A stretch of 49,260 nt of DNA from a virus (IMGVR_UViG_3300017963_000081), one strand, 5' to 3'; shown: positions 5,786-47,389, counted from the first letter of the stretch. Numbers and translations are program-made. The notes: generated by a model from the sequence alone, not told the origin.

Positions 5786-5837
5786 GTTTTCTCTCCAGAG
5801 ATCCCGGCGGGAACTTCAAAAATAGACAGGTGTCACA
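5786..5837 (+). promoter_or_regulatory. Conserved intergenic module, copy 1
   Basis: gTTTTCTCTCCAGagaTCCCggcGGGAacTTCAAAAATaGACAggTGTCacaATG. Confidence 0.8.
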
Positions 5838-5972
5838 ATGCCGTTGACAAAGAAAGGACGAAAGGTCATGCGGGCGATGCGTCGTCAGTATGGCTCTTCC
5901 AAAGGAAAGCGGGTATTCTACGCTTCTGCGAACAAAGGAACCATCAAAGGCGTTCATAAGAAACGTGGTTAA
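5838..5972 (+). CDS. Small basic protein, 44 aa (MPLTKKGRKVMRAMRRQYGSSKGKRVFYASANKGTIKGVHKKRG)
   Basis: Below the ORF-track cutoff. ATG lies directly after motif copy 1, and the stop overlaps the 1035-aa gene start (TAATG). Confidence 0.55.
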   Translation: MPLTKKGRKVMRAMRRQYGSSKGKRVFYASANKGTIKGVHKKRG

Positions 5973-8900
5973 TGAGCAACGCTTTCATCACCCTCAACGA
6001 CAAGGCGGTTGTCGACCCACGGGAGTTGTACCGTGAGGCGAACCGTCTAGGTGTCGATCTTCCAAATGATGCGCTGCGCGCGAATAGCTTTACTCTTTCT
6101 AGAGGAAAGGAGCCTGCAAATGGCTGGATTCTCCTACGCAAATCGGATTTTCCTAGCACTCTCGATTCTATCTCTCTCGATCTTCGTTTTGTTGTGGACG
6201 ACAAACCCGGCAAAGGCGCAATCACCTTCCGGGATTTGTGCGTTTGGTCAGTGTATGCTGTACTCGCCGGCTCTTCCGAGGACGACAGTGTCTTCCTCCT
6301 CCAACTTTGTGATCGAAGAGTATTGGCCCACCTATCGGCGGTTAACCGTGCGTACAACCTCTGGGAACCAGACGGTACGTTATTCTACACGTCCCAGGAT
6401 TCTGGCTCGGATTGGACATGGGATTCGATCCTTGAAGATTTGTGGGATGCGCTGCCGTCGGCGGTAGGAGCGTACCCCGGAACGACCGGTTTGACGTTTC
6501 CCGAAGAAACGCCACACTATCAGTTTTGGGGTTGGAATGCGTGGGACGCGATCAATCGCGTTTTGGAAGACACTGGACATACGATCACCCGTGAGTTAGA
6601 TGAGGTCAGTGCTGGCGTCTGGCAAACGGGTGATCTTAAAATCGTCGCGAAATCGGATACGGATACCGTAATCTCGCAAGAGTTGACCAAGGCGTTGAAA
6701 GACGGTCTGGTCGAACACACGCATCCGCAGGACGTCACAAAAGCTTCGATCCCCGCGACGTTCCGAATCTTCCGGCCCAAGCGGGACTACTCTTTCCAGA
6801 ATGATCATTCCAGCGAACCTACGTGGGGCGACAAGCACAAAAACGATTGTACGTACTCGTCCGACGTAGCAACGGCTTCGCTTGACTCCAGCGTTTCCAC
6901 GGTTGCTGAAACGGTTTACCCGATTTGGGATTCATACCCCGCTGTTTACGATGAAGACGGGTCCTTGGAAAACGGAACGGAGATTTCCAACCGGGCATCC
7001 ACGCTCGCGAATCTTCACCTATCCGCTTTGCTTCTGGAGGATCGAGACAACACCTTCACCGGGCTTTGGCGTCTGTACCCTGGAAAGGTACTGTCTTCGG
7101 TTTTGTTCCACGATTTCGGAGACGGTATCTTCACTCAAATTACGGCGGAAGGTTTGACCCGCGCCCCTGCCAATACCGACCCCTACTCGCGACCTTCGAT
7201 TGTCGAACCTTCAATTCCGTACGACCGATGGTTTATTGGAGAAATCACGGGCGGAAGCATCGCCGCAGGTTCCAACGGAACGGCCAAGGTTCTCTACGGG
7301 TCCATCGGAACCTCCGGAAATATTGCGTGGTCGCAAAAGTCAACGGATACCGAGCCGGTTCATAATGCGGCATCCAGTCGCACATACAACAACGCGGAAC
7401 GAGTAGTTTGCAAGTACCATTGGCAAACGCAACGTTGGCTGATCCTCGACGAGACGGGTGATCCCGGATCGTCCCCCATGAAAATCATTAAGATATACGG
7501 GGTCAATGACGAATGCGACACGATTGCTGATGATGCCGATTGCGTTTGGGCGGGAAAGATCGTCACCGGAACAACCTCCGGTTCGATGTGCGGCTTTCCC
7601 AACACCGAAGGTGACGACGTTTGGGTCACTTGTCTGAATCAATGCCCAACTCCGCTGGTCTTGAAGATCGGCGAGTTGTACATCGGATTCAAAGTCACCG
7701 ACAGTTACACGTACAACGAACATGCTGACCGACCGCTTTATGCAATCCGAAAGCCGCCAGCGGAAACGGCGGTGGTTCGTGTTACCGGTGAATCCCCCGG
7801 ATCGTTTACATCGTGCTATCACGACGTAGACGAGATCGGCAAGTGTGCGTACCAAGGGAAGCGATTAGAACCGGACTACCAAGCAAGTGGTCAGCTTCCT
7901 TCGGATATGTGTGACGCGGACGCCTGGCAGGAAGTCGAAGACATTTGGATTGTCGGGGTTAACCAGTGTAATCACATGCGGGAGCTGCGAGTCGGCGAAC
8001 AGTACATGGGAACCTGCATGGGTTACTTGATCAACGGTGCGGTCAAGTACCCATGCTACGCCGTCCGGCATGAAGAGACTTCCGTCTATCTATTTGAGGC
8101 AAATTCGTCCGGCGTTTATTCCAACAACGTCTATGACGTCCAGACGTCCGATCTTCATTACCCCGACGGGACGGATACCCTGAAGGGTCCGAACATCGTT
8201 GACCACACAACGTGGAACACAGACACGTTGAACTTGTTTCCACGGGTGCGGAATAACAGCCGCGGCGTTTGCGTTTATGTCGGGTCAACGTCAAACGCGG
8301 TTACACCTCAAGATGAATGGCACATCGTCAACGTCCAGCAAGAAGCGATCATCGTTGAAGTCGAGTTGAATGCACATTTGACGCCCGGCGATAATACGAT
8401 TTCTACCACCTACCGAAGAACGCTTTCGCCTAGCCCGTTCAATATTGCTCCTTCTGCGGTAAACAATTGCAACAACCGTTTCAAGCTTCGCGGAACAAGC
8501 GGGACGCGGGCGCTTGCGTTTTATGACAAAGACGCAACGGGTTCGGGTGATCTCACTTATGATTGGACGATCTTTCAGGTGGAGGGAGGTTGTGGGCCGC
8601 TTCTTTGGCGTGCAAACATCACGTCCACCTCTACTGAGTATCCGCCTGATGTGTCAGCACTTCCTTGGGGTTCGGAAGTTGTCACATCTGCTAACTATCC
8701 TTTAGGATTTACACATAACACGGGAACGTATGAAACGACGTTTACCAAAGTCGGTTGGTATGACATTCGCATTTCGATAAGACTTCAAGCAGGGACAAAT
8801 TCAGGAACAGGCACAAATACGACGTTCACTTTAGAATTGGATTTTGATACTGGTGGTGGATATTCGGGCGAAACGTTGTCACAACGATCAGTTTATATCG

Positions 8901-9079
8901 GAAACGATGGCGCATCTAGTTCTTTGTTCTTAGACTATGCCGGACTTGAGATGCAGTACCTCAAACAAATTACTGTAGCTAATACGAAGATGCGCACCAA
9001 CTTTAGACGGGATGGAGGCAACCAAGCGGTCAAGGTGATTCAAGGGAGCTTATTCATCCAACCAGTGAACTATGCCTAA
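5972..9079 (+). CDS. Tail fibre/spike-like protein, 1035 aa, with an internal tandem Cys-rich domain duplication
   Basis: ORF track. Beta-rich composition, duplicated ~95-aa module at aa ~505-593 and ~601-699, followed by accessory enzymes. Confidence 0.55.
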   Translation: MSNAFITLNDKAVVDPRELYREANRLGVDLPNDALRANSFTLSRGKEPANGWILLRKSDFPSTLDSISLDLRFVVDDKPGKGAITFRDLCVWSVYAVLAGSSEDDSVFLLQLCDRRVLAHLSAVNRAYNLWEPDGTLFYTSQDSGSDWTWDSILEDLWDALPSAVGAYPGTTGLTFPEETPHYQFWGWNAWDAINRVLEDTGHTITRELDEVSAGVWQTGDLKIVAKSDTDTVISQELTKALKDGLVEHTHPQDVTKASIPATFRIFRPKRDYSFQNDHSSEPTWGDKHKNDCTYSSDVATASLDSSVSTVAETVYPIWDSYPAVYDEDGSLENGTEISNRASTLANLHLSALLLEDRDNTFTGLWRLYPGKVLSSVLFHDFGDGIFTQITAEGLTRAPANTDPYSRPSIVEPSIPYDRWFIGEITGGSIAAGSNGTAKVLYGSIGTSGNIAWSQKSTDTEPVHNAASSRTYNNAERVVCKYHWQTQRWLILDETGDPGSSPMKIIKIYGVNDECDTIADDADCVWAGKIVTGTTSGSMCGFPNTEGDDVWVTCLNQCPTPLVLKIGELYIGFKVTDSYTYNEHADRPLYAIRKPPAETAVVRVTGESPGSFTSCYHDVDEIGKCAYQGKRLEPDYQASGQLPSDMCDADAWQEVEDIWIVGVNQCNHMRELRVGEQYMGTCMGYLINGAVKYPCYAVRHEETSVYLFEANSSGVYSNNVYDVQTSDLHYPDGTDTLKGPNIVDHTTWNTDTLNLFPRVRNNSRGVCVYVGSTSNAVTPQDEWHIVNVQQEAIIVEVELNAHLTPGDNTISTTYRRTLSPSPFNIAPSAVNNCNNRFKLRGTSGTRALAFYDKDATGSGDLTYDWTIFQVEGGCGPLLWRANITSTSTEYPPDVSALPWGSEVVTSANYPLGFTHNTGTYETTFTKVGWYDIRISIRLQAGTNSGTGTNTTFTLELDFDTGGGYSGETLSQRSVYIGNDGASSSLFLDYAGLEMQYLKQITVANTKMRTNFRRDGGNQAVKVIQGSLFIQPVNYA

Positions 9080-9701
9080 AGTATCTTGGCGATATATCGA
9101 CATTCCTCGAACCGGGTCCACTTCATTTCGCGAGCTATTCGGCCCCGGAGCCGATGCGGGTGTGCGACACACCCCGTACCGTCCTGGTCACGAATCTGCG
9201 ACGCAGTTTGTCACAATCATTCGCCATCCGCTGGACCGTCTTGTCTCCATTTACGCATACGTCAAGAAGGTTCAACCGAACCATCTGGACGGTGCAACAT
9301 CCTTCGCCGAGTGGGTCAAAGACGGGATACCATACAACGGGGTCCGTCTTTCAAGTTGGAACGGGGACCATGCGGACGCTGCGAGAAAAAAGCAAGGCCC
9401 TTGGCTGACCGTTCCGCAATGGTACTGGATAGAAAAGGTTCCGACGGGAATGCTGCGCATCCTCCGTTTTGAGAATCTGGACCACGACGCGGAAGAGTTC
9501 AACCGCTGGCTCGGGCGTGCAAACAACCGATTCCCTCACATCAATCAATATCCCCATCCCCCGTGGCGTGAATTGTATGCCGACCCCGAAGTCCTTCGGA
9601 TCGCAACTGCTGTCTATGCAATTGATTTGGTCAACTTTCAGTATGAGGTGCCTTGCGGCATCGGGGATTGTCAAGGGGATATGTTGCTAAAGCATAAGTG
9701 A
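9072..9701 (+). CDS. PAPS-type sulfotransferase family protein, 209 aa
   Basis: 5'-PSB-like IPRTGSTSF and 3'-PB-like IIRHPLDRLVSIYAY, as in sulfotransferase family 2. 8-nt overlap with the fibre gene. Confidence 0.7.
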   Translation: MPKVSWRYIDIPRTGSTSFRELFGPGADAGVRHTPYRPGHESATQFVTIIRHPLDRLVSIYAYVKKVQPNHLDGATSFAEWVKDGIPYNGVRLSSWNGDHADAARKKQGPWLTVPQWYWIEKVPTGMLRILRFENLDHDAEEFNRWLGRANNRFPHINQYPHPPWRELYADPEVLRIATAVYAIDLVNFQYEVPCGIGDCQGDMLLKHK

Positions 9702-9789: not shown

Positions 9790-11178
9790 ATGCCGTCCCT
9801 CGAATCTGCGCTGCAATCTGCGGCGGAACAAACCACGTTTGAAAGCGTCCGTAAGGGAATCCGCGACTCGGGCGGAGCCGGTTCCGCGTTGCAAGTCTAC
9901 CAGATGGGGTTCTTCGGAGCCTTTGGTCCGACTGGTCCGGAGTGGATGAAGAAGATTTGGGAGGAAGACCAAGACTTGGTAGGGCAGTTTCGCGGTCTTG
10001 AGCACGTTGCTATTCCACGTGCAGAGTGGAGGGGGAAACGTGCGACGTTTTGGAATCATTACATGGAGCTTCAGCCGGCAGATGCGCTTCGCGGGAACCA
10101 AGACACCGGAAATTGTACATCGTGGTCAGGTAGAGCAATGCTCAATTGTTGTCTCGGCGCGGACATCAAGAAGCGGTTGGAGCGGCAAAAGTGGCCCGGT
10201 GCTCGAATCGGAACAGCGATGATGTACGCCAACCGAGGGCATAGCGGAGCTGGCATGACGTTGGCTCGGGCGATTGACGCTGTTGCGAACAAATACGGGA
10301 TCAGTATCCAAAAGTCATACTGCAACGGCCAATACGACCTGACGGCGGAAGATGCGGACGAGGGGTACGGCGTAAGCTGGTGGCGCGGCGTTCCGGATTG
10401 TGTCCTGGAAGAAACACGACAGCACAAGCTGTTAGCCTGGGACCGTGTAACGGATGAAGACAAGTCAATGTCTTACCTCCTTGACGGTCGATTTCTGTTT
10501 CACGGTTCGCAGTACACAGCCCGTCCGTCCGGAAACCTGATTTCTTCTCTCCAGAGCATCGGCGGACATGCGCAAGCCGTCCTCGGGTACGATGATACCG
10601 ACGAGTTCAAACAGTGGTACAAAGAAAATACCGGCCAGACGTTGAACGACTACGTAGTAATCCACGATCAAAGTTGGGGGAATTGGAACCAGATCCCCGG
10701 TTCGAAATGGCCAGACCATCTTTGGGGTCAGAAGCCTGAAGGGGCATGGGTTGTAACGGGTCGCGATTACATGCGAATTGTGAACCAGTGGGGGGATCAA
10801 TACGCCGCGTTGGACGTTGGTGGTTTTCCAGACGACAGTCCACCACCTCCCCCGCCTCCGCCACCTGCGACGTGGTTGGCTGTTGCTGTCTGGGATGTCA
10901 GTCCGACTACCGGCGTAGTGGGCCAGATAATCGAGTGGTTCGTGAACGGGGAAAAGAAAGCGACAGTCTCGATGAATGCTTCGCAAGAACGAACGACATC
11001 GGATGATGCGAAAATTTCGGAAAGCCTTAAAGCGGGAGATGCTGTCGAGGTTCGTATCAAAGCGATTACCGCGTCCGGCGTTACGAGCGAACCCGCAATC
11101 GCACAAGGGACGGTGGAGGAAAACGGGGAGCGTCCTTTACCTCCTCGAAATGTTCGACTGGCTTTCACCAAACGTTGA
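9790..11178 (+). CDS. Papain-like (C1-type) cysteine peptidase with a poly-Pro linker and a C-terminal Ig/FN3-like module, 462 aa
   Basis: Catalytic-type motifs NQDTGNCTSWSG (Gln/Cys), GGHAQAVLGYDD (His) and HDQSWGNWN (Asn-Ser-Trp-Gly). PPPPPPPPP linker. AGGAG RBS. Confidence 0.7.
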   Translation: MPSLESALQSAAEQTTFESVRKGIRDSGGAGSALQVYQMGFFGAFGPTGPEWMKKIWEEDQDLVGQFRGLEHVAIPRAEWRGKRATFWNHYMELQPADALRGNQDTGNCTSWSGRAMLNCCLGADIKKRLERQKWPGARIGTAMMYANRGHSGAGMTLARAIDAVANKYGISIQKSYCNGQYDLTAEDADEGYGVSWWRGVPDCVLEETRQHKLLAWDRVTDEDKSMSYLLDGRFLFHGSQYTARPSGNLISSLQSIGGHAQAVLGYDDTDEFKQWYKENTGQTLNDYVVIHDQSWGNWNQIPGSKWPDHLWGQKPEGAWVVTGRDYMRIVNQWGDQYAALDVGGFPDDSPPPPPPPPPATWLAVAVWDVSPTTGVVGQIIEWFVNGEKKATVSMNASQERTTSDDAKISESLKAGDAVEVRIKAITASGVTSEPAIAQGTVEENGERPLPPRNVRLAFTKR

Positions 11179-11213
11179 CCGTCCCGTCGGGGACCTGGAA
11201 AGGAGATGCAGAA

Positions 11214-11438
11214 ATGAGTGGTGTCTGGATTCGAGTCGTCATTGCGGCTCTCAAGATTATCTCCCGGTTCATCGAAGACCCGGAGATGAAGAAGATTCTG
11301 GAAGAGTTAATCGCCATCCTCGAAGAACTCTTCCAGAACCCCAACGCGATCAACGAAGACGATTCAAAGGCCGAACTTGTCGCCCAGTATGAAAAGTGCC
11401 TGCTTCGCTCTCGTAATCGCGACGTATCGAAGATTTGA
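11214..11438 (+). CDS. Hypothetical protein, 74 aa (N-terminal amphipathic/hydrophobic helix)
   Basis: AAAGGAG RBS 8 nt upstream of the ATG. Overlaps the convergent helicase 3' end by 75 nt, which lowers confidence. Confidence 0.35.
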   Translation: MSGVWIRVVIAALKIISRFIEDPEMKKILEELIAILEELFQNPNAINEDDSKAELVAQYEKCLLRSRNRDVSKI

Positions 11439-13787: not shown

Positions 13788-13985
13788 CTAGTCTTTTTCC
13801 TCTTCAAGTCGAAACTCACGACGGGTTAACCATTGTCCGTTGTCCAGAATGTACAACGGGGATAAGTTGAACCCGCTGGGTTCCCGGACGTCTACGATTC
13901 GTTGGTGTCGCGCGAACCCTTCATTGATTACGACAACTACCCGTCTACCGATCAGGTTTCGCGGGTCTAAAAGATTCTCAAGCAT
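13788..13985 (-). CDS. Hypothetical protein, 65 aa
   Basis: ORF track. Overlaps the upstream gene by 19 nt and is followed by a terminator. Confidence 0.5.
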   Translation of the reverse strand: MLENLLDPRNLIGRRVVVVINEGFARHQRIVDVREPSGFNLSPLYILDNGQWLTRREFRLEEEKD

Positions 13986-14173
13986 TCTGCGCTTTCCTCC
14001 GAATTACGTGGATAATCAGGATTTGGGGGAACGTAGAGATCAATATCGGTTCCCCCGCACTTCGGACACCCCTCCGTAACGGCGCGTTCTGCGCTTTGGG
14101 TTGTCCAGAATCGTTTCCCGCATTCCATGCACTGGAATGTCGGGGTCCTAGGACGTCGCTTTTTCGATGACAT
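13967..14173 (-). CDS. Zinc-ribbon protein, 68 aa, with a basic N-terminus (MSSKKRRPRTP)
   Basis: CxxC...CxxC pattern (CMECGKRF...CPKCGG). AGGGGG RBS. Confidence 0.55.
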   Translation of the reverse strand: MSSKKRRPRTPTFQCMECGKRFWTTQSAERAVTEGCPKCGGTDIDLYVPPNPDYPRNSEESAECLRIF

Positions 14174-14245: not shown

Positions 14246-14797
14246 CTAACGTCGTTTCGTCGTCTTTTTCTTGACGCTACGTTTTGCGGGGGTTTTCTTC
14301 GCAGGGGTTCCCGATTTCGTCCCTGATTTCGTCCCTCCTGAAGCTTTCGAACCCCTCACGGTCTTCCGAGTCGTCTTTCGGACAGGAACCGTCTCCGGTT
14401 CTTCTGGGGACGATTTCGAGGGGGTAGCTTTGGGGGGTTCAGGTTTGGGAGGATTGTCGAGCAGGTGGTTCCTATCCAGCGCTTTCTCCCAGGTGAGCGC
14501 CTGCTTTGCGAGACGGTCGTTCCATGTACACAATGCTGGCGCTGCTTGATCGACATTCGCGACGTCGCGCAAGTCGATTCCCTCCAAGTCGGACAGTCTA
14601 TCCATCACGTGTTTACTCGCGATAGTTAGCGCTTCCGTTCGGTCGAACCCTGGAGTAGTACAATCCGGGTTAATCTCCACCCGCACAACTAGTGGGACAA
14701 TAACGTCCCAGTTAATCCGTCCGTTGTCTTCCAGGACAATGCGGGGGTGAACCTTGGTTGTGGGTTTACGCGACGTCGACGTGTTCTTGCGTGTCAT
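14246..14797 (-). CDS. Hypothetical protein, 183 aa, with a histone H1-like Lys/Pro/Thr-rich C-terminal tail
   Basis: The C-terminal ~60 aa read KPEPPKATPSKSS...GTKSGTKSGTPAKKTPAKRSVKKKTTKRR. GGGAGA RBS. First gene downstream of the minus-strand sigma70-like promoter. Confidence 0.6.
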   Translation of the reverse strand: MTRKNTSTSRKPTTKVHPRIVLEDNGRINWDVIVPLVVRVEINPDCTTPGFDRTEALTIASKHVMDRLSDLEGIDLRDVANVDQAAPALCTWNDRLAKQALTWEKALDRNHLLDNPPKPEPPKATPSKSSPEEPETVPVRKTTRKTVRGSKASGGTKSGTKSGTPAKKTPAKRSVKKKTTKRR

Positions 14798-36518: not shown

Positions 36519-36572
36519 AGTTATCTCTCCAGTAGTCCTGACGGGACGTTCAAAAATAGACTAGTGTCTAAT
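36519..36572 (+). promoter_or_regulatory. Conserved intergenic module, copy 7. Orphan copy lying between two minus-strand genes.
   Basis: TTATCTCTCCAGtaGTCCTgacGGGACgTTCAAAAATAGACtagtGTCTaat. Confidence 0.75.
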
Positions 36573-36987: not shown

Positions 36988-37075
36988 TTTATCCTACTTT
37001 TTCCGCCCGTCCTAGACGTTGTAAAGGGGGATTGCCGAGGGGATTTCTGGTAGGATTCGGGCGGAGGCCGAGATC

Positions 37076-37207
37076 ATGATGGGAAAAACGATGCGTCGTC
37101 GGATGCGGAAACGGGTTCGAATGACGCCGAAATTCAAGCCGCCCGCTGGCGGCAGCGCTCTTCAGCGACCGGTATCGACCCGTCGCCAAATCGGTCGGAG
37201 GATGTGA
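37076..37207 (+). CDS. Small Arg/Lys-rich protein 1 of a tandem trio, 43 aa (MMGKTMRRRMRKRVRMTPKFKPPAGGSALQRPVSTRRQIGRRM)
   Basis: Below the ORF-track cutoff. GGAGG RBS. The stop overlaps the next start (TGATG). Confidence 0.45.
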   Translation: MMGKTMRRRMRKRVRMTPKFKPPAGGSALQRPVSTRRQIGRRM

Positions 37208-37359
37208 TGTTGCGTGGAAGACCTGTCTCGATGAAAACTGCTAAGAAGTTAGCTCGTCGAATGCCTGGTGGCGTTTCGGCAGTAACGCTTCGAAAGCGAC
37301 TCAATGCAAAGCCGAAGAATACGCGGAGAGCTGCAGCGCTTAAAGCGATGAAGGGTTAG
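37207..37359 (+). CDS. Small Arg/Lys-rich protein 2, 50 aa (MLRGRPVSMKTAKKLARRMPGGVSAVTLRKRLNAKPKNTRRAAALKAMKG)
   Basis: Preceded by TCGGAGGATGTGATG, the same 15-mer that precedes protein 3. Confidence 0.45.
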   Translation: MLRGRPVSMKTAKKLARRMPGGVSAVTLRKRLNAKPKNTRRAAALKAMKG

Positions 37360-37375
37360 TTGATCGGAGGATGTG

Positions 37376-37513
37376 ATGGGCGGAATGGCGATGAAACCGA
37401 AGACGAAGACCTTGCTCCGTCACGGTCAGCGTCGCAAGAAGTTCAGCCGAACGACTCGGGGTCAAATCGCCAGACTTCTCAAAGAATCGCGGAGACGCCA
37501 GAAGGGTTATTAA
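37376..37513 (+). CDS. Small Arg/Lys-rich protein 3, 45 aa (MGGMAMKPKTKTLLRHGQRRKKFSRTTRGQIARLLKESRRRQKGY)
   Basis: Preceded by TCGGAGGATGTGATG. Stop lies 1 nt before the GTG start of the scaffold/protease gene. Confidence 0.45.
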   Translation: MGGMAMKPKTKTLLRHGQRRKKFSRTTRGQIARLLKESRRRQKGY

Positions 37514-37514
37514 C

Positions 37515-38846
37515 GTGCCGTTCTTCGACAAGCAAATCTTGAAGCCTGGAACCTACAACGTCCCCGCCCCTGATGGGACGATGCAAAAGGTCCACCTCAG
37601 CGCGGAACGGTTCAAGCGGTGGGTTGACAACTTCAAGAAAATGGCCGCCGCAGGTCTAAACATCCCCGCCCCGTGGCGACACGACGAGAAAGCGATTCCT
37701 CTCCGGTTGTCGGCAGACCAGGGCGATACCGACGCTTTCCAGAACGGTGGTTTCTGGCGAGACCTTTGGGTGGACAACAACGGAACCCTTCACGGTCGCG
37801 TGGAGGTTCCGGATGAAGAGACCGCGAAGCAGAAGATCGGCAAGACCGTCCGCGAGGTCTCTCCGCTGGTCAAAGGGAAGTGGGCCGACGGAGCGGGGAA
37901 CGAATACGAGGATGCGATCACGCACATCGCGTTGGTCACGCATCCGGTGGCACAAGCTCAGGAGAACTTCACGCCTATCGCTGCGTCGCTTGCTTTCTCC
38001 CACTCGCAACTGCTGGTAGCAGACGAGGAGTTGGTGCCGCCCGAGTTGCAATTTCAAGTCGTGCAGGAACCCGCAACAGAAATGCCGGAGCCGACATCCG
38101 CATCCAACGCAACTGTCCAGGATGCGGTTGGGGTGCTCCGCGAGCTGGGGCTTAACCTGCCGGACGATACTACCCCGGAGAACATTCTGGAAAGGATAGT
38201 CACTGCGGGTCTTGCCCTTCGAAGTGAACGGGAACGATCACCCGATACGAACGCACCCCCAGTGGGCGCGACAGAGCCGAGAGGTCCAATCACGATGAGT
38301 CAACAGAATCAGACCGTACCATCCCCATCGTCGTCGGCGGGGCCGAACGCGCAGGCGGCCCCTCCGACTTCACCTCCCGCAACGGTCGCGTTGTCGCAAG
38401 AGCATCAAGCCGCTCTGAACTTCGCGAGCAAGGTAGGTCGACAGATGTACATTGACCGGATTGACAAGCTGGTCAATTCGGGACGGATCACGCCGGACTA
38501 CGCCAACAAGACGTTGTCCCCCTACCTGAGCGACTTGCGGCTGTCGTTTGACGCGGATGGCAACCCAATGTCCGGCGAGCTGGACAAGCTATTGCTTGCC
38601 CTGGAAGCATTGCCGCAGAACCAAGTGATCGGTGGATCGGTTGTCTCCGGGATCCGCAGCAACGGTCAGCAGATGTTTTCGTTGGCAACGCAACCGACCG
38701 AAGTTCCCAACGAACACTTGTGGCGGGACAACACGGCGGAGCCGTCCGAAGACGAAGCGATTGACATTGTCAATCAGCAGTTTCAGAACACCGGTCGCAG
38801 CCACTTTATCCGGGGTCCGCAACGCATGACCGGACGTCCGGTTTAA
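37515..38846 (+). CDS. Head maturation protease / scaffolding protein candidate, 443 aa
   Basis: The N-terminus FFDKQILKPGTYNVPAPDGTMQKVHLSAERFKRWVDNFKKM...IPAPWRHD resembles Mu gpI/DUF2213-type proteins. The Pro/Ala/Ser-rich middle, helical C-terminus and position upstream of the decoration and capsid genes fit. Confidence 0.45.
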   Translation: MPFFDKQILKPGTYNVPAPDGTMQKVHLSAERFKRWVDNFKKMAAAGLNIPAPWRHDEKAIPLRLSADQGDTDAFQNGGFWRDLWVDNNGTLHGRVEVPDEETAKQKIGKTVREVSPLVKGKWADGAGNEYEDAITHIALVTHPVAQAQENFTPIAASLAFSHSQLLVADEELVPPELQFQVVQEPATEMPEPTSASNATVQDAVGVLRELGLNLPDDTTPENILERIVTAGLALRSERERSPDTNAPPVGATEPRGPITMSQQNQTVPSPSSSAGPNAQAAPPTSPPATVALSQEHQAALNFASKVGRQMYIDRIDKLVNSGRITPDYANKTLSPYLSDLRLSFDADGNPMSGELDKLLLALEALPQNQVIGGSVVSGIRSNGQQMFSLATQPTEVPNEHLWRDNTAEPSEDEAIDIVNQQFQNTGRSHFIRGPQRMTGRPV

Positions 38847-38858: not shown

Positions 38859-38917
38859 GTTTTCTTTCCAGGTAACAAACGGAAGGCCGCCGAGCGGCCC
38901 TGCAAGAGGGAAGTCCG
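38859..38917 (+). promoter_or_regulatory. Conserved intergenic module, copy 8 (diverged; hairpin sequence replaced)
   Basis: gTTTTCTTTCCAGgtaacaaacggaaGGCCGCcgaGCGGCCctgcaagagggaagtccgATG. Confidence 0.6.
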
Positions 38918-41004: not shown

Positions 41005-41040
41005 GGGCGGGTGAGGCGAGGGACCTTGCCCGCCCTTTTT
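41005..41040 (+). terminator. Rho-independent terminator after the capsid gene
   Basis: gggcggg(tgagg)...(ccttg)cccgccc stem followed by TTTTT. Confidence 0.8.
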
Positions 41041-41103
41041 CGTGGTATTATCTCTCCAGTAGTCCCCGACGGGACGTCCGAAAACTAGTGAACAGGTGTA
41101 CAG
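41041..41103 (+). promoter_or_regulatory. Conserved intergenic module, copy 9. Starts 1 nt after the capsid terminator.
   Basis: CGTGGTATTATCTCTCCAGTAGTCCCcgacGGGACgTCCGAAAACtagtgaACAggTGTacagATG. Confidence 0.8.
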
Positions 41104-43980
41104 ATGCCGAGACGTCCTTATTACATTCTTGCTGGATACAGAAGACGTCGCGTAACGGGGTTCTCTTGGACCAAGGTCACCAACCAGGTCATTCGCTACA
41201 ACCCATCGGACACGGACAATCCACCGGTAACGCGGACCAGTGCCAGTTTCGATGGGACGAACTGGTTGGCAGCGACTACGGCCAACTTTCGGTCAGCCGA
41301 TTCTAGTGGATCGATCTTCGGATGGGTGTACATTCCCGCAACGACGGCAACCCAGACCATCTTTTCAACCGCTGATACGGCCACAGCCAATTACTACCTG
41401 GCACTGAGTATCCTCGGGACCGGTGCGTTTCAGATCGACCAGAAGAACAATGACACTGCTGATCAAGTCGCAACGACCGACACGGGATACGATGATGGTG
41501 CATGGCACTTTGTTGAACTACGGTCGAGTGGTACGGCGTGGTCCATTCGCGTTGACAAGACGGATTTGACACTTGACACACCAGCCAGTGGGACCAACAG
41601 TGGCGATTGGTTTGCGGATACCACGGCGCGGGACAACGTAGTTCTCGGTGCGTTGGTTACAAGCTCTACCAGCCAAAACATGATTGGCCGGCTGGACCAC
41701 TTCTACATCACCAACACACCTCTGACGGACACCGAGCACGATTATCTAGCGGACAACAAATTAGGTTTTGACGACGCCGAAGCCTACCTTGGCTCTGGCC
41801 GAATCGTTTTCGCCCCGCCCCTGAACAACACGTCCCCTGGCGTCTGGCCGGACCTGTCCGCCAGCGAGTTACACCTGACCGAGTACGGGACTGCTAAGGG
41901 GGTGACGTTTGCTAGTGCGAGTAGTCAGTATGCTAGTAGTGACGCAACGCCGACTGGTGCTTATCCGATAGCAATGGGATGCAGTTTTAAAACTACGTCC
42001 TCACCAGATACTAGTACGCAAGGCTTGATATGGTTTGGCGACAAAGACTCAAGTGACGACTTTCAGGCTTTATTTCTTTTGGGTGGTACCGATGTGGTAG
42101 CACGATCCATTAGCAACTCTGATGCGGCCCGTGATGCCAGAAGTACAGGAATCAACCCTGATGATGGCGCGTGGCATGCCATTGGTGGGATTTTCACTAG
42201 CTCCAGTAGGACTGTTGTGGTTGAAGGGGATAGCGTTACCGAATCAACAGCACAAGCAATAGGTGTGACGTATGATAGATTATCCATTGCTATGTTCCGG
42301 GACGCAAGTCCGAACAATCCGTTCAATGGCACGTTAGATAATTGTTGGTTATATCAAGGTGGTACAGCGCTAACTGTGGCGCAGGTAAATTGGCTCCGCA
42401 CCGGCGGCCCCTCTGGCGGCCCTGCCACTTACCGCGATGTACAGACTTCCAACCACCCCGATAATCCGGGCATCTCCAATCTGCGGGCCTGGTACAAACT
42501 GAACGAATCAAGTGGAACCACGCTGGTCAACGTCCACAACCCAGGAACGTATGACCTAACCACTCAGAACAGCCCGACACTCGGTGCCACCGGCCACGTG
42601 ATCGACTACCCTGGCTGGGCAGACGGGACGGTGGAAGCGGATACGGAAGTGGAAGATCGGGCACTGAGGTTCAATGGGACGAATCAGTATGCTTCCAGAG
42701 CGGTAACCGGGTTTCGCAGCACGGATACAACGGGTTCATGGTCGTTTTGGTTTCAAGAGTCTAAAATTGGTACTGCAAACATTGCTTTGATCGGGTCCAG
42801 TGATGGCGGTACGGGAAACAACACAGTTGAAATATATCTTACTACTACGTCCAAATTGCAACTACTGTTGCGTACGGGTGGGGCGAATTTATCAGGAATT
42901 ATTTCCGACGCGACGTTCGTAAATAACACCCTACATCATGTAGTCGTTGTATCTAACGGCACGGACTACGACCTATACGTGAATGGGTCTCCAAGCACGT
43001 TCGCGGTAAACGTCGCTGACGACGGCAAATGGTATGCAGCCGTTGGTTCAAGGACCAATTTGACGTTTGCCTCAAGGGTGCGTTCATCGGCTCAAGATTA
43101 CATGACGGGTGTAATTGACGAGCCGATGTATTTTAATTCAGCGCTAAACACGGACGACGCATCAGAACTTTACAACGGCGGCGCTGGCGTTTTAGCCGCC
43201 GACCTGATCAGCGGTGCCGTATCACTCACCAGTGGCAAGAAACCCATCCACGCATGGCCTCTCAATTCCCGTAGTGCCGCAGGGGCTACCGCAGACATCG
43301 GCACCACAGGCGGTCTGACCCTAACGCTCAACAATTCCCCCACCGACGCCGCAGGCATCCCAGCGGGGCGAGTGATCGGGGGAAGCGTGTACAAACTGCC
43401 GGACCTGTCGGGCAACTCACGCAACGCATTGCAAACGGACATCACTAAGCGGCGGTGGCTGTCCTCGGAATCTGTGGGAACCGTGTTGTCCGGGGATACG
43501 GTTAGCAAGTATCTACAGACAGCATCGTTTACGGCAGTATCTCAGCCGACGACCGTAGTACTCGTGACCAAGGTAACAGCACCCACAACGGCCCAATCTA
43601 TGTTTGACGGAATTGCAGCGGCCAATGAGCACGGCGTGAGAACAAAAGTCACGACGGGGGTCATCCAAATTGACGGCGGAACCGAGGTAGACGGTACCGC
43701 AACCGTCGATGCGGCCACATGGACCATCTGGACGATCATCTTCAACGGTGCATCCAGTAAAATCTATAAGAACGGCGGGACACCGCAGACGGTCAACGCC
43801 GGGTCCGAGGGTATCACCGGTGCGACCATCGGGGCCTTGTACGATGGCACGCTGGCAATGGGCGGCAGCCACGGCGACATCATGGTCAAGGAAGGTGCGA
43901 TCAGTGTAGCCAATCACAATGCGATGGGACGGTATCTGGCCACCATCTACGGAATTACATGGAACACAGTGTCGGCATGA
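41104..43980 (+). CDS. Tail fibre protein with four LamG/concanavalin A-like lectin domains, 958 aa
   Basis: Four repeats of the pattern F(D/N)GTN.. / ...DDGAWH.. / ...L(Y)VNG (e.g. SFDGTNWLA...DDGAWHFVEL, RFNGTNQYAS...LHHVVVVSNGTDYDLYVNG). Confidence 0.7.
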   Translation: MPRRPYYILAGYRRRRVTGFSWTKVTNQVIRYNPSDTDNPPVTRTSASFDGTNWLAATTANFRSADSSGSIFGWVYIPATTATQTIFSTADTATANYYLALSILGTGAFQIDQKNNDTADQVATTDTGYDDGAWHFVELRSSGTAWSIRVDKTDLTLDTPASGTNSGDWFADTTARDNVVLGALVTSSTSQNMIGRLDHFYITNTPLTDTEHDYLADNKLGFDDAEAYLGSGRIVFAPPLNNTSPGVWPDLSASELHLTEYGTAKGVTFASASSQYASSDATPTGAYPIAMGCSFKTTSSPDTSTQGLIWFGDKDSSDDFQALFLLGGTDVVARSISNSDAARDARSTGINPDDGAWHAIGGIFTSSSRTVVVEGDSVTESTAQAIGVTYDRLSIAMFRDASPNNPFNGTLDNCWLYQGGTALTVAQVNWLRTGGPSGGPATYRDVQTSNHPDNPGISNLRAWYKLNESSGTTLVNVHNPGTYDLTTQNSPTLGATGHVIDYPGWADGTVEADTEVEDRALRFNGTNQYASRAVTGFRSTDTTGSWSFWFQESKIGTANIALIGSSDGGTGNNTVEIYLTTTSKLQLLLRTGGANLSGIISDATFVNNTLHHVVVVSNGTDYDLYVNGSPSTFAVNVADDGKWYAAVGSRTNLTFASRVRSSAQDYMTGVIDEPMYFNSALNTDDASELYNGGAGVLAADLISGAVSLTSGKKPIHAWPLNSRSAAGATADIGTTGGLTLTLNNSPTDAAGIPAGRVIGGSVYKLPDLSGNSRNALQTDITKRRWLSSESVGTVLSGDTVSKYLQTASFTAVSQPTTVVLVTKVTAPTTAQSMFDGIAAANEHGVRTKVTTGVIQIDGGTEVDGTATVDAATWTIWTIIFNGASSKIYKNGGTPQTVNAGSEGITGATIGALYDGTLAMGGSHGDIMVKEGAISVANHNAMGRYLATIYGITWNTVSA

Positions 43981-44723
43981 GTGTAAAACAGCAATACGTA
44001 GCGGCAGTCAGTAACGCAGACGTTGACGACCTACGCACCGCACTGGCAGCAGTCAGCGGCGATTGGGCCGCGTATCTATTCCGCGAGGCAGTGATCCGGG
44101 ACGACGATCCGGATGACCTGGACCCGCCGCGAGGTTGGGCTGTGGTAACGCCGAGGACGTGGCAGCAGCGAGAGCTAGAGCTGTTCAAGCAAACCGTTCA
44201 GGCGGTCAATCCTGGCTCGCTACAGTACCGGCAAGTACCGGCCAAACTATTTGACGAGGACTTGGCCGAGGATCAGACACTAGACGCATGGTTTGCGACG
44301 AACGGTTTTCGGCGGCGTGGCGTGGTCATGGTGTCGGTAGGGCACGCATCGGCAGATGGCACTGAGGATGCTCAGGACACGACCACCAGCTACATTTTGG
44401 TCAACCAGTGGACGACACTGGACCGCATGGTGCAGATGAGTCGCAGCGGGCAACGCTTTGAGTTAAACCTCGGCGGAACGTACCGGTTGTCGGTATCCCT
44501 GGAATTCGAAGCGGTACAGGGGACGCTGTTTGGTTTCAGGGCGGTGCGGAATGCGGGTGTGGTAGGTGATGAATTGGTCAGCGGTGACGGTGAAGCGGTG
44601 GGCAGCATCGAAGGTACTCTGTCTGCAGGTGATCTCATCGGGTTGGCTGTACGAAGCAGTCAGGCGGCATCCTTCAAATTGCTGGCCGGATCGGAAATAC
44701 GATTGAAGAGGATTGCGTCATGA
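43977..44723 (+). CDS. Fibre-associated protein with a possible C1q/TNF-like jelly-roll C-terminus, 248 aa
   Basis: ATGA overlap with the fibre gene. C-terminus GTYRLSVSLEFEAVQGTLFGFRAVRNAGVVGDELV...LSAGDLIGLAVRSS...GSEIRLKRI. Confidence 0.45.
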   Translation: MSVKQQYVAAVSNADVDDLRTALAAVSGDWAAYLFREAVIRDDDPDDLDPPRGWAVVTPRTWQQRELELFKQTVQAVNPGSLQYRQVPAKLFDEDLAEDQTLDAWFATNGFRRRGVVMVSVGHASADGTEDAQDTTTSYILVNQWTTLDRMVQMSRSGQRFELNLGGTYRLSVSLEFEAVQGTLFGFRAVRNAGVVGDELVSGDGEAVGSIEGTLSAGDLIGLAVRSSQAASFKLLAGSEIRLKRIAS

Positions 44724-46540
44724 CAACATATCGCCTCAATTCTGGTCAGCCGTTGCAACCGATGCTGGACAACCTGCGAGGTGGTGACGTTCTTGAGCTT
44801 GAGGCCGGGGCGGTGTGGTCTGGCGGATTCCTGTTACCGCAGAACCGCACCACACAGCCGATCACGATTCGCACCACGTACACCGGATGGGAATCCAGCG
44901 TGCGTGTCGGGCCGGCAGACGCACCGAAAATGGCAACGCTGGAAGTACCTGGTTCGTCACCAGTTCTGCGAGCGCAGGCAAACTCTCACGGTTTTGTTCT
45001 GGAAGGGCTGGAACTTCGAGTAGCTGCGGACTACACGAACATGCAGTACAACCTGCTATCGTGGGGTTATCACCGAGACGCCAATACACAGATCAGTGTT
45101 CTTGAAGAACTGCCAGCCAATATCATCATCAAGCATTGCTATGTACACGGGCACGCGACCAGTAGCAGTCGAAGAGGTACGGTATTGAACTGCAACGGCG
45201 CGACGGTCGAAGACTGTTACTTCGCGGACTTCCATCAAGCTGGATTCGACTCGCAAGCTATCGGCTGCTGGAATAGTCCAGGAAACCTTGTCATCCGCAA
45301 CTGCTACTTGGAAGGTGCTGGAGAGAATGTATTGTTCGGTGGTGGTGGTGCTGGACTCGGCGCTGAAGGCAATCCGGACGGTATTCTGATCGAACGGTGC
45401 CACTTCCGAAAACCCTTGCACTGGTTCAAGTGCGAGGCTGAATGGGACGGACGCGAGCCTCTATGGACGATCAAGAACCTACTAGAATTCAAAGTAGGGT
45501 CGAATATCGTTGTGCGCAGTAACGTGCTGGAAAACAACTGGGCACACGCGCAGCATGGGCAGGCTATTGTCATCACGCCGCGAGAAGGACCAATAGGCGA
45601 CATTTTGATCGAGGACAACATCATCCTACACAGCGCAGCCGTTGCAGCGATTGCAGACACGGGTCCTGGCATCGGTAATGTCACTTGGCGAAACAACTTG
45701 GTGTATGACATCCGACGAGGACAAACAAACAATGGTACGAGCCGAGGACAAAACTACAGTTTCAATATAGCTGGACGAAGAGACGGGACTCGGATACCGT
45801 CCGTGGCGATGGTCGGCAACACGTTTGCCCACGGTTGGGAAAACGCAAATCTTATGGGCACAAACCCATCGGAAAATCACTCACAAGGCTTTATTAACTT
45901 CACTCGCAATTCGGTTGCGCAGTTTACATGTCGGGATAACATTATCGCGTTGGGAAACTACGGCCTGATGCTGGATGCTGGCGGTGGTGGCGTAGCGGCG
46001 TTGGACGGGGGATGTGACGAGTACAACTACGGCCACAACGTGACAATCGCGGAAAATCCGCAGTCATCGTACCCGGCAATCAACGATGACATTGCACTAC
46101 CGATAACGACACCGTTGGCGGAAGTGTTTCAGGAACCCGAAGTGTGGAACATGCGACCCGTGCAGCAGTACGCCGGATACGGATGCAATGCGGATCGGCT
46201 CTACAATCTTGCAGAACAAGTCAGACTAGGAAAATTCGACATGCCACAAGCGACATACAGGTGCACCGCGACTTGGACACCAGGCACCGGCGCGGACGCT
46301 CAGTTGATTCAATGGTTTATAGATTCTGTCATGATCCACAATATGAGTTTGGATGCCGGTGCAACTCAAGACATTCGGCAAATCCCGGCAGATCCGGGAC
46401 AGGTGATCCGAGTTCAAGTCGCCGGCGAAAACCAGCACGGGGCGGCAGAGTGGCGGACTGTATCCGTTACTGTGCCCAACAACGGAACGCCGCCGACGCC
46501 AGTCAGCGGTTTAACATTATCTATCGAGAAGATCACCTAA
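44720..46540 (+). CDS. Right-handed beta-helix (pectate-lyase-fold) depolymerase candidate with a C-terminal Ig/FN3-like module, 606 aa
   Basis: NLVIRNCYLEGAGENVLFGGGG, ILIERCHF, IVVRSNVLENN, ILIEDNIILH and VTWRNNLVYD repeats. C-terminal 96 aa are homologous to the peptidase C-terminus. Confidence 0.65.
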   Translation: MTTYRLNSGQPLQPMLDNLRGGDVLELEAGAVWSGGFLLPQNRTTQPITIRTTYTGWESSVRVGPADAPKMATLEVPGSSPVLRAQANSHGFVLEGLELRVAADYTNMQYNLLSWGYHRDANTQISVLEELPANIIIKHCYVHGHATSSSRRGTVLNCNGATVEDCYFADFHQAGFDSQAIGCWNSPGNLVIRNCYLEGAGENVLFGGGGAGLGAEGNPDGILIERCHFRKPLHWFKCEAEWDGREPLWTIKNLLEFKVGSNIVVRSNVLENNWAHAQHGQAIVITPREGPIGDILIEDNIILHSAAVAAIADTGPGIGNVTWRNNLVYDIRRGQTNNGTSRGQNYSFNIAGRRDGTRIPSVAMVGNTFAHGWENANLMGTNPSENHSQGFINFTRNSVAQFTCRDNIIALGNYGLMLDAGGGGVAALDGGCDEYNYGHNVTIAENPQSSYPAINDDIALPITTPLAEVFQEPEVWNMRPVQQYAGYGCNADRLYNLAEQVRLGKFDMPQATYRCTATWTPGTGADAQLIQWFIDSVMIHNMSLDAGATQDIRQIPADPGQVIRVQVAGENQHGAAEWRTVSVTVPNNGTPPTPVSGLTLSIEKIT

Positions 46541-46550
46541 AGGACGAACC

Positions 46551-46955
46551 ATGCAAACCGTCAAGGCACGATTTCGGGGCCAAAACCCAGACGACCGATC
46601 CCTTACCATTCCTGCCGGCGAGCCGGTTCGGATTGAACTGTGGTCCGAGGCACACTATTACGGGCCGAAGATTGACTCGTACGACGGATTGTTACCAGAC
46701 GCGGAGGATCCCCACGCCGGCCCACAACCCAACAAGGATCGACCTGGTACGCTGAAGATTACGGAACACGGATTGCTTGGTGATGGGGACGGTGTATGGC
46801 TGGTCGCGCAGATGGATGAGCCAGACGCCGTGGCCATTTTGCAGGTCTACTGTCATTCCATTTACCCGCACCCGTTTGCCGACGATCAAACAAAGTACAT
46901 GCAAGCCAAGTTGGCGTTGCTTGTTTCAACGAGAACCGATTTTGAATTGCTTTAA
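46551..46955 (+). CDS. Hypothetical protein, 134 aa
   Basis: ORF track; tight spacing in the structural run. Confidence 0.5.
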   Translation: MQTVKARFRGQNPDDRSLTIPAGEPVRIELWSEAHYYGPKIDSYDGLLPDAEDPHAGPQPNKDRPGTLKITEHGLLGDGDGVWLVAQMDEPDAVAILQVYCHSIYPHPFADDQTKYMQAKLALLVSTRTDFELL

Positions 46956-46966
46956 GAGAGCTTGCT

Positions 46967-47323
46967 ATGGGCCACTTACTCGGCGAGCTTCGCGTCAACG
47001 ATGACAACCTTCTTCACAAAGGAGAAGACAACGCGGTCCAACTGCGCGGGCTTCGCAACACTGACGACCCCGCAACGTTCGTTGACGACGGGACGTTAAC
47101 GTTCACATTGAAGGACATGGACGGCGATGCTGTCTCGGGAGCTGAAAACATCAGCATGACATACGAGACAGACTCCGATGGAGTATACGTTGGCCTTGTT
47201 CAGCAAAGCGTCAGCTTGACAATACACACTCACTATTTCTTGGAGGTTTCTATGTCGGACGGGACCGATACCGGTTTCCGCCGACGACGACTTTGGTGTA
47301 ATTATCACCGGTCCCGCCCCTAG
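46967..47323 (+). CDS. Hypothetical protein, 118 aa
   Basis: ORF track. The TAG stop abuts motif copy 10. Confidence 0.5.
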   Translation: MGHLLGELRVNDDNLLHKGEDNAVQLRGLRNTDDPATFVDDGTLTFTLKDMDGDAVSGAENISMTYETDSDGVYVGLVQQSVSLTIHTHYFLEVSMSDGTDTGFRRRRLWCNYHRSRP

Positions 47324-47389
47324 ATTTTCTCTCCAGAGATCCCGACGGGAACCCCAAAATTTAGTGTACGTTTGTATACTGGAGAAAAG
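47324..47389 (+). promoter_or_regulatory. Conserved intergenic module, copy 10
   Basis: aTTTTCTCTCCAGagaTCCCgacGGGAacCCCAAAATttagtgtacgtttgtatactggagaaaagATG. Confidence 0.8.

Follow-up and report, generated by a model that had tools for sequence, protein, structure and literature searches.

Repeated, oriented intergenic signals are a common phage way of organising gene expression, and motifs of this kind are usually promoters. The N4-type promoter is a template-strand hairpin with a 5–7-bp stem and a 3-nt loop that serves early genes and is used by the virion RNA polymerase. The boxA (CGCTCTTTA) and boxB elements have been defined in lambda, P22 and phage 21, and translation inactivates the nut sites of lambda. 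T4-type phages carry PeSL cassettes, in which sigma70 consensus −35 and −10 elements and an AT-rich upstream region are combined with stem-loops that are terminators (PMC2839356, PMC4122927). The stoperators of cluster A mycobacteriophages such as L5 are asymmetric sites of approximately 13 bp, present in more than 10 copies in short intergenic spaces and oriented with transcription (PMC9283540), and the SAS/ESAS motifs of cluster K mycobacteriophages form a one-orientation repeat before start codons, in which SAS lies 3–8 bp from the start, contains the Shine–Dalgarno core, has an inverted repeat upstream and sometimes overlaps the upstream stop codon (PMC3203893). Here we describe an intergenic module of approximately 55 bases, consisting of a pyrimidine-rich 12-mer, two small hairpins and an A-run, that recurs in the phage genome IMGVR_UViG_3300017963_000081, analysed as one stretch of 49,260 nt (the window). 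It is a familiar category of element in a new sequence form, and the full definition of none of the systems compared here applies to it. We tentatively read it, at somewhat below even confidence, as a lineage-specific promoter/5′-leader cassette that would mark the starts of expression units, with transcription starting at CCAG.

A repeated module with two small hairpins

An earlier note on this DNA had listed ten intergenic copies on the + strand, and all of them were found where it had placed them. The repeat is far more frequent than expected: the 10-mer TTCTCTCCAG occurs 20 times with at most one mismatch (2.9 expected), the 12-mer TTTTCTCTCCAG 31 times with at most two mismatches (4.4 expected) and the joint pattern TCCAG-N2-3-NYCY-N3-5-GGGR 12 times (0.27 expected). 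A covariance model trained on the eight canonical copies was used to scan the window and scored these copies at 55–70 bits, all on the + strand, with every other site at 25 bits or less. The ten-copy module of the earlier note thus stands for eight copies; the other two, copies 4 and 8 (14 and 12 bits), share the 12-mer only: their hairpin is a different one, and both the A-run and the GACA/TGTC palindrome are missing. Beyond the original ten, three partial copies consist of a 12-mer variant and the first hairpin only (at 3312, 29226 and, on the minus strand, 11213). Rfam covariance models gave no match at E ≤ 1 across the whole window on both strands.

The 12-mer appears to be the larger part of a slightly longer motif. 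TAG accounts for 20 of the 63 stop codons genome-wide, and the stops that abut the module, which the earlier note had reported for five copies, are indeed TAG in all five; copies 7, 12 and the pair 5/9, with no stop codon at that place, carry TA there too. TA(G) therefore seems to be part of the motif, which comes to approximately 16 nt, TA(G)nTTTTCTCTCCAG. The spacing from CCAG to hairpin 1 is fixed at 2–3 nt in all 11 copies that carry this hairpin, and the unrelated hairpin of copy 4 is likewise 2–3 nt away. Hairpin 1 has a (C/T)CC...GGG core and a stem of 4–6 bp (5 bp in the canonical copies), closed by GAC, GGC, GGT or TAC loops and a few 4-nt variants. One-sided changes in its stem give U·G in five of five cases and C·A in none, which, in few and related copies, is suggestive of a structure formed by the + strand itself, either as RNA or as single-stranded DNA. 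In copies 2, 6 and 7 the second element forms a perfect palindrome of 12–14 bp; both arms are changed in copy 3 (TACA/TGTA in place of GACA/TGTC), and other hairpins substitute for it in copies 9 and 10. We regard the hairpins as real because they recur across copies, not because they are stable. A role as terminators was rejected on inspection, as no U-run follows either hairpin on either strand.

With its pyrimidine-rich box, short spacer and 5-bp stem-loop with a conserved loop, folding in the + sense, the module could be taken for a nut- or put-like antitermination site, in which the 12-mer would act as boxA, hairpin 1 as boxB bound by a small Arg/Lys-rich protein, and polymerase would be reloaded with the factor every few kilobases. 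Seven small basic open reading frames (ORFs) are encoded in the genome, two of them behind copies 1 and 5 and two flanking copy 7, and copy 2 lies downstream of an early promoter. This suggestion of the earlier note nevertheless fails on sequence, since the 12-mer is unlike boxA and the loop has 3 nt in place of a GNRA-like loop of 5 nt. In addition, there are 10–13 sites here versus one or two per genome in known systems, the sole strong + strand terminator lies before copy 9 and not after it, copies 11 and 12 are translated, and the ORFs gave no match to the N, Q or Nun families. We consider an antitermination site very unlikely.

Placement and orientation

The copies are co-oriented with local genes in 12 of 13 cases, copy 7 being the exception. 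Among the approximately 11 intergenic gaps of at least 45 nt on the + strand, nine consist essentially of one module, and in nine cases the motif stands 40–75 nt upstream of a start codon. Most copies lie between co-directional genes with no terminator and begin at the upstream stop codon. The minus-strand early block (11.3–17.1 kb) contains several gaps and no full copy. The sites precede replication, capsid, fibre and adaptor genes, in agreement with the earlier observation that the module is not tied to one temporal class.

Copy 7 exactly fills the gap between two minus-strand small basic ORFs. It is antisense to these neighbouring genes, and neither a + strand start codon nor a + strand gene follows for approximately 500 nt. 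Because the best-scoring copy is antisense and gene-less, the element is autonomous and directional and is not a part of a ribosome-binding site.

The position between co-directional genes, at the upstream stop codon and with no terminator, would also suit an RNA element for intercistronic processing or stability. A host RNase E/G-type or a phage endonuclease would cut polycistronic + strand RNA in the U-rich 12-mer or in the A-rich linker, the flanking hairpins would protect the new ends, and copies 5 and 9 would make the same 5′ end by initiation. Consistent with this are the single-stranded U/A-rich segment beside small stem-loops, the + sense fold indicated by U·G-only changes in hairpin 1 together with two-arm changes in hairpin 2, and the hairpins of different sequence retained in copies 4 and 8. 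Set against it, the + strand RNA at copy 7 would be antisense and non-coding, cleavage at copies 11 and 12, which lie inside ORFs, would destroy the message, and the 12-mer is conserved more strictly than known RNase E sites require; no phage endoribonuclease was recognised among the ORFs, and the Rfam search was empty. We judge a processing element unlikely, although it is the rival that we take most seriously.

The + orientation of copy 7 amid minus-strand genes, with its conserved asymmetric sequence beside a small hairpin, might instead indicate strand-specific DNA sites, either nicks of the kind known from T5 and phiKMV-like phages or priming signals. For the latter, the minus-strand sequence of the hairpin 1 loop is GTC, the trinucleotide of T7-type primases, and the phage has a Toprim primase-helicase. 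Such sites would not be expected to spare the several gaps of the minus-strand early block, nor to keep the narrow distance to start codons seen in nine cases; copy 13 lies on the opposite strand, the ORFs include no recognisable nickase or HNH gene, and the T·G pattern implies that the + strand folds and not the minus strand. We hold DNA sites of this type to be highly improbable.

We also weighed a cis anti-Shine–Dalgarno role, in which the pyrimidine tract would pair, over the span of both hairpins, with the downstream ribosome-binding site and a ribosome terminating at the neighbouring stop codon would open the helix, giving translational coupling. RNAfold pairs the 12-mer with the Shine–Dalgarno region in copies 2, 5, 6 and 10, the flanks of copy 10 form an 11-nt inverted repeat, in five copies the motif adjoins the stop codon of the upstream gene, and in three related loci (L086, L087 and L088) the adaptor orthologue has a similar tract immediately upstream of its ribosome-binding site. 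The mean duplex energy of module genes is, however, −8.2 kcal/mol versus −7.5 kcal/mol for 55 other genes (one-sided Mann–Whitney p = 0.27), pairing is poor in copies 1 and 9 (−1.7 and −3.4 kcal/mol), no gene lies behind copy 7, and the conservation of the 12-mer goes far beyond what pairing needs. As pairing with the own ribosome-binding site is no better than in the other genes, we rejected this as the main function, and we rate it as very improbable.

Sigma70 features and the promoter/leader reading

Copies 5 and 9 share the sequence CGTGGTATTATCTCTCCAGTAGTCC, a 25-nt identity that had been noticed before and that sequence comparison confirms. It contains an extended −10 element, TGgTATTAT (TG-n-TATTAT), directly 5′ of CTCTCCAG. 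Copy 5 alone also has TTGACC 17 bp upstream of the −10, which makes it a good sigma70 promoter. In both copies the predicted start, 6–7 nt past the −10, is the first purine after the pyrimidine run, that is, the A/G of CCAG. The claim of the earlier note that the geometry does not fit sigma70 is therefore wrong for copies 5 and 9. Elsewhere, TAnnnT lies 1–2 nt further from CCAG in copies 1, 2, 6, 10 and 12, and copies 3, 4, 8 and 11 have none in range. The two near-consensus promoters that the note had listed, at 14957–14930 (12/12) and 17135 (10/12), are present and carry no module; with copy 5 and the site at 29286 beside copy 11, two of the four strong sigma70-like promoters touch a module.

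Other promoter types fared worse. If CAAAAT is taken as the −10, hairpin 1 falls in the spacer of a sigma70 promoter; we rejected this arrangement, as the implied −35, TCCAGA, is poor; the last-position T of this −10 is also missing in copies 6 and 9. By eye, no sigma54-type or extracytoplasmic-function-type boxes were consistent among the copies.

A promoter role remains the best single reading, with the earlier reasoning on the sigma70 misfit and on the terminator upstream of copy 9 corrected. We lean towards it, short of even confidence, because 12 of 13 copies are co-oriented with local genes, copy 7 is autonomous, copies 5 and 9 show sigma70 features and the distance to the + sense hairpin is short and fixed. 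The nine of approximately 11 gaps given over to one module, the position of copy 9 directly behind a terminator, the two of four strong sigma70-like promoters that touch a module, the U·G-only changes in hairpin 1 and the hairpins that copies 4 and 8 retain in place with a different sequence all argue in the same direction, as does the minus-strand early block, which has a perfect TTGACA-16-TATAAT promoter and no full module.

According to this promoter/leader reading, expression units on the strand bearing the replication and virion genes would begin at the T- and pyrimidine-rich core TA(G)nTTTTCTCTCCAG, where host RNA polymerase would melt the DNA. A putative early phage factor would probably assist, since the −35 element is not conserved. 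RNA would start at the first purines past the pyrimidine run, the A/G of CCAG, so that the stem of 4–6 bp (canonically 5 bp) with a GAC triloop, 2–3 nt downstream, would become a 5′-terminal stem-loop of the mRNA, followed by the A-rich linker, the second small hairpin and the ribosome-binding site. Copies would have spread and decayed within a single lineage, as PeSL-type regulatory cassettes do, and such spread and decay would explain the core-only, partial and reversed copies.

Several observations weigh against the promoter/leader reading. Apart from copies 5 and 9, no copy has a convincing −10; the 12 + strand copies show no conserved −35, and indeed no conserved column at all, upstream of −16. 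The most conserved bases (TTCTCTCCAG) sit where sigma70 promoters vary most, so that a recognition factor must be assumed, and candidates for it are limited to an early Zn-ribbon protein, a DUF1580 helix-turn-helix protein and small basic proteins. The start site at CCAG is a prediction from the sequence. Copy 13 is directed towards a convergent gene, at its 3′ end, a place in which a promoter would serve no evident purpose. The hairpins are marginal, with whole-module folds of −8 to −10 kcal/mol and z-scores of −0.8 to −2; only copy 4 reaches −4.2, and the other copies are individually non-significant. Finally, relatives of the phage manage with no module. These relatives also bear on copy 9. 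The terminator that the earlier note had placed at 41005–41040 is there (at 41005–41035), and the note had held that the fibre gene behind it needs a new start signal. In the relatives L085 and L120 the next gene begins 10–25 nt past the post-capsid terminator, too close for a promoter to fit between them; in L120, the closest relative (86% capsid identity), the terminator alone occupies the position of copy 9 and the next gene follows 13 nt behind. Read-through of this terminator is therefore normal in the family, and the need for a new promoter at copy 9 is a weak argument.

In a bolder version, to which we give only a minor share of our confidence, the 12-mer and the triloop hairpin would form a new promoter class, served either by host polymerase reprogrammed by a small early protein or by a divergent phage polymerase. 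The early Zn-ribbon protein and one of the Arg/Lys-rich mini-proteins would be the candidate reprogrammers, and recognition would involve either a single-stranded hairpin on the non-template strand or the stem-loop at the nascent 5′ end. If true, this would be a hairpin-dependent promoter system in a Planctomycetota phage family with no cultured member.

Candidate factors

No RNA polymerase, sigma factor, N or Q family match was obtained for the approximately 60 ORFs against Pfam, PHROGs and NCBIfam, and the same protein-family searches gave no Nun match. Motif expressions found no polymerase motifs in the large ORFs of unassigned function, which are Ser/Thr/Gly/Asn-rich, tail-protein-like and syntenic with the tail genes of relatives, and a PDB sequence search with the ORFs of 1035, 606 and 462 aa gave no match (a structure-based search was not made). 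The earlier note, which could recognise no phage RNA polymerase or sigma factor, is borne out by family, motif and PDB sequence searches alike. As none was found, host polymerase must be used.

Candidates for an assisting factor are the proteins of a four-protein early operon, among them an FmdB-type Zn-ribbon protein, the DUF1580 protein and the seven basic ORFs. One ORF of the early operon has a histone-H1-like, Lys/Thr/Pro-rich tail; this minus-strand operon (14957–13745) resembles a host-takeover or regulatory unit. The seven basic ORFs (43–69 aa) contain 25–40% Lys+Arg and almost no acidic residues. Two stand directly behind copies 1 and 5, and copy 7 has one on either side, so that the Arg-rich small ORFs earlier reported next to several copies are present beside these three. 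Two of the seven start with MAKKL, and in the relatives L085–L087 similar tiny basic ORFs fill long ‘intergenic’ stretches past the capsid gene; they may be packaged DNA-condensing proteins or nucleic-acid binders.

Related phages that have no module also lack the DUF1580 gene of the copy-7 neighbourhood (tblastn against 36 of their loci gave no match). This lineage-specific gene raises the prospect that the copies are double-stranded DNA sites for a phage regulator, operators or roadblocks like the L5 stoperators, recognised through the 12-mer and the palindromes GTCCC-N3-GGGAC and AGACA-N2-TGTCT. The module resembles stoperators in its more than 10 asymmetric sites in short gaps, 12 of 13 oriented with transcription and some overlapping stop codons. 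Copy 5 overlaps a sigma70 start region, which is an operator position, and copies 2, 6 and 7 have a perfect palindrome, whose loop of only 2 nt makes it a poor RNA hairpin. Yet protein-family searches of the ORFs matched no integrase, recombinase or recognisable repressor, so that a temperate lifestyle is not indicated. The U·G-only variation points to a single-strand fold, copies 4, 8 and 10 exchange the palindromes for unrelated hairpins, which a sequence-specific protein would not tolerate, and the early promoters at 14957 and 17135 have no site. We regard sites for a regulator of this kind as decidedly unlikely.

Table 1. Coordinates of module copies and of other features in the window and in related loci
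Feature	Position	Strand	Score (bits)	Details
Copy 12, partial	3312–3349	+	22.4	ATTATCTATCCAG + TT + ACCCGACGGGAAC; inside ORF 3274–3627, read as QLPDGNS; no A-run, no second hairpin
Copy 1, full	5783–5837	+	66	TAG stop, 12-mer, hairpin 1, A-run, palindrome; downstream, 44-aa Lys/Arg-rich ORF (5838–5972), then 1035-aa structural ORF
Copy 13, partial	11180–11213	−	16.3	TCTCCTTTCCAG + GT + CCCCGACGGGAC; convergent junction past helicase gene
Copy 2, full	17952–18005	+	63.4	about 800 nt downstream of sigma70-like promoter 17135; heads small-gene block reaching Erf
Copy 3, full	21469–21523	+	67.2	upstream of 196-aa gene and PolA
Copy 4, core-only	24873–24913	+	14.1	12-mer TTTTCTGTCCAG (24873–24884); unrelated, strong hairpin 24886–24913, −22.7 kcal/mol; upstream of primase gene
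Copy 5, full	27031–27106	+	54.8	overlaps sigma70-type promoter; −10 element is the 5′ half of the motif; 59-aa Arg-rich ORF (27130–27309) downstream
Copy 11, partial	29226–29270	+	25	TTTCGTCTCCAG + TGA + CCCCGACGGGAA; inside 3′ end of ORF 28739–29377, read as SDPDGNS
Copy 6, full	31027–31080	+	61.8	immediately past TerL stop codon (TAG)
Copy 7, full	36517–36571	+	70.4	top score; in 49-nt gap between ORFs 36568–36723 and 36309–36518
Copy 8, core-only	38860–38899	+	11.6	12-mer TTTTCTTTCCAG (38860–38871); 13-nt spacer, then unrelated hairpin GGCCGC-CGA-GCGGCC (38885–38899); decoration and major capsid genes downstream
Copy 9, full	41044–41099	+	61.6	directly behind terminator; upstream of 958-aa LamG fibre gene
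Copy 10, full	47321–47379	+	63.6	upstream of Mu gp36-like head-tail adaptor gene
Sigma70-like promoter	14957–14930	−		perfect TTGACA-16-TATAAT, 12/12 match
Sigma70-like promoter	17135–17163	+		10/12 match
Sigma70-like promoter	29286–29314	+		TTGACA-17-GATAAT; 45 nt behind copy 11; before small ORF and TerL
Intrinsic terminator	41005–41035 plus T-run	+		only strong + strand terminator; copy 9 directly behind
Early operon	14957–13745	−		promoter 14957–14930, four small ORFs (47, 183, 68 and 65 aa; three of them at 14246–14797, 13967–14173 and 13788–13985), terminator
Early-operon terminator	13771–13745	−		strong; 11-bp stem plus T8
Primase-helicase gene (Toprim)	24945–27026			
DUF1580 protein gene	36727–36987	−		86 aa; E = 4e-9; helix-turn-helix; adjoins copy 7
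Seven basic ORFs	5838–5972, 27130–27309, 36309–36518(−), 36568–36723(−), 37076–37207, 37204–37359, 37373–37513			
Block between copies 9 and 10	41104–47323			LamG fibre of 958 aa, then 254, 606, 134 and 118 aa
Pyrimidine-tract-CAG motif	L085			CCTTCAGAGAG
Pyrimidine-tract-CAG motif	L087			CTTCTCTTTCAGAA
Pyrimidine-tract-CAG motif	L086/L088			TTCTCTTTCAGGAA
TTGAC(A/G)-N17/18-TAAACT site	L085 ~7540–7570; L086 ~4065–4095; L087 ~7455–7485; L088			

Distribution, turnover and host

Neither the covariance model, run on 42 loci of relatives, nor exact-pattern scans of IMG/VR gave any match. In 185,579 genomes the pattern matched at 46 scattered, single sites, versus approximately 70 expected by chance on our own estimate from the information content of the pattern; these scored 15–25 bits, and all lack the A-run and the second hairpin. 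Comparison with deposited phages by blastn gave chance 18-mers only, and pooled intergenic k-mer enrichment across the relatives was dominated by base composition and uninformative. Some relatives have a weaker repeated motif of their own, a pyrimidine tract followed by CAG directly before ribosome-binding sites, which in L086/L088 and L087 precedes the orthologue of the copy-10 adaptor gene and is absent from that place in L085 and in more distant relatives. The lack of conservation in related phages, which the earlier note had named among the findings that would refute it, holds in part: the module itself is absent from every relative fetched, and this weaker motif alone recurs, in some of them. 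From this distribution we conclude that the full module is lineage-specific, that its amplification is recent and that it flanks one variable block or more.

That block, 6.2 kb between copies 9 and 10, has no counterpart in the capsid-to-adaptor interval of the relatives, whose slot holds unrelated genes of 105–788 aa. The interval 41104–47323 is thus predicted to be a hypervariable host-recognition slot bracketed by repeats. The partial copies 12, 11 and 13 all fall within ORFs, and in each the reading frame across the hairpin is the same, with CCC GAC GGG giving Pro-Asp-Gly; copy 13 reads QVPDGTV in a 50-aa ORF, 11165–11317(−). Either ORFs expanded over decayed modules or this 50-aa ORF is spurious. 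In a separate observation, the relatives share a promoter-like site, TTGAC(A/G)-N17/18-TAAACT, in the divergent region before the orthologue of gene 37515–38846; the phage of the window has no such site at 36988–37075, and copy 7, the DUF1580 gene and small basic ORFs are found there instead.

The two ends of the window are an exact 123-nt direct repeat (1–123 and 49138–49260), which, read as an assembly overlap, makes the genome circular or terminally redundant with 49,137 bp of unique sequence. Two ENA metagenome assemblies, ERZ27256783 and ERZ27256798, contain the same phage, 100% identical over the approximately 21 kb retrieved, and strain polymorphism therefore gives no information on covariation. 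Recognised replication and repair genes encode a UvrD-type helicase, an exonuclease, an ERCC4 nuclease, a PD-(D/E)XK nuclease, Erf, a family A DNA polymerase, the Toprim primase-helicase and a ParB-like/DUF4417 protein, and recognised virion genes encode the large terminase, a decoration protein, a lambda E-type major capsid protein, the LamG fibre, the Mu gp36-like adaptor and a Mu-portal-like protein. A cluster of surface- or sugar-modifying genes at 31089–34995 includes a signal-peptide protein, a beta-helix/NosD-like protein, a methyltransferase and a glycosyltransferase-like protein, and a sulfotransferase-like ORF is probably at 9072–9701 (a Sulfotransfer_2 match from a pooled scan, with the ORF assigned by us); the set is unusual for a 49-kb phage.

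A genome megablast and a capsid tblastn gave zero matches among 50,697 deposited phages. Capsid homologues with 45–68% identity occur on many metagenomic contigs from marine, freshwater and other metagenomes, approximately 30 of them 45–57 kb long, and the phage belongs to a large uncultured family with genomes of approximately 45–57 kb. One such contig is labelled as a Thermoguttaceae metagenome-assembled genome; together with the DUF1580 gene, whose family was first described from Rhodopirellula, this indicates that the host is probably a member of Planctomycetota. To our knowledge, Planctomycetota transcription signals are barely known. The cassette offers a handle for mapping the transcription units of such phages in metatranscriptomes and a compact candidate promoter/leader part for Planctomycetota genetics. 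Its absence from a relative with 86% capsid identity, the decayed copies in ORFs and the bracketed fibre block also make it, through its rapid turnover, a clean case for the spread of regulatory cassettes and the exchange of modules.

Comparison with known systems

The earlier note had suggested N4-type hairpin promoters as one parallel. The module shares with the N4 virion-RNA-polymerase promoters a stem of approximately 5 bp, a 3-nt loop with a central purine and a conserved flank; unlike them, it shows T·G changes on the + strand (C·A on the template) and also precedes capsid, fibre and adaptor genes. With the fold on the non-template strand, late genes served as well as early ones and no virion or T7-like RNA polymerase found, this promoter type is not supported. 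Lambdoid nut sites have in common with the module a pyrimidine-rich box, a small stem-loop and Arg-rich small proteins encoded nearby, whereas here the box is not boxA, a triloop replaces the GNRA-like pentaloop, and there are 10–13 copies, some of them translated, in place of 2.

Stoperators and the SAS/ESAS motifs may be counted as formal analogues. Like the module, stoperators are asymmetric, oriented sites among all gene classes (12 of 13 here), but they are plain prophage-repressor sites with no hairpins, whereas the module has hairpins with wobble pairs on the + strand, and neither a repressor nor an integrase was found. In contrast to SAS/ESAS, the motif here is pyrimidine-rich, stands 40–75 nt upstream of start codons and has its hairpins downstream.

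The closest functional analogues would be the T7-group promoters with leader hairpins and the PeSL cassettes. The T7 group, with its promoters and RNase III sites, likewise has approximately ten or more oriented intergenic signals that delimit units regardless of gene class, each with a conserved core of 16–17 nt followed by a leader hairpin; here, in contrast, no single-subunit RNA polymerase was found, there is no sequence similarity, and the hairpins are far too short for RNase III. PeSL cassettes differ in that sigma70 features are confined here to copies 5 and 9, the core is pyrimidine-rich and the hairpins are weak and lack a U-run; mini-circles and recombination between copies belong to the PeSL picture, and for the copies described here exchange would be a prediction from their arrangement. 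What the two would have in common is a short, multi-copy intergenic cassette of promoter and stem-loop whose position is lineage-specific and which flanks variable gene blocks, as copies 9 and 10 bracket the 6.2-kb fibre block that is absent from the relatives.

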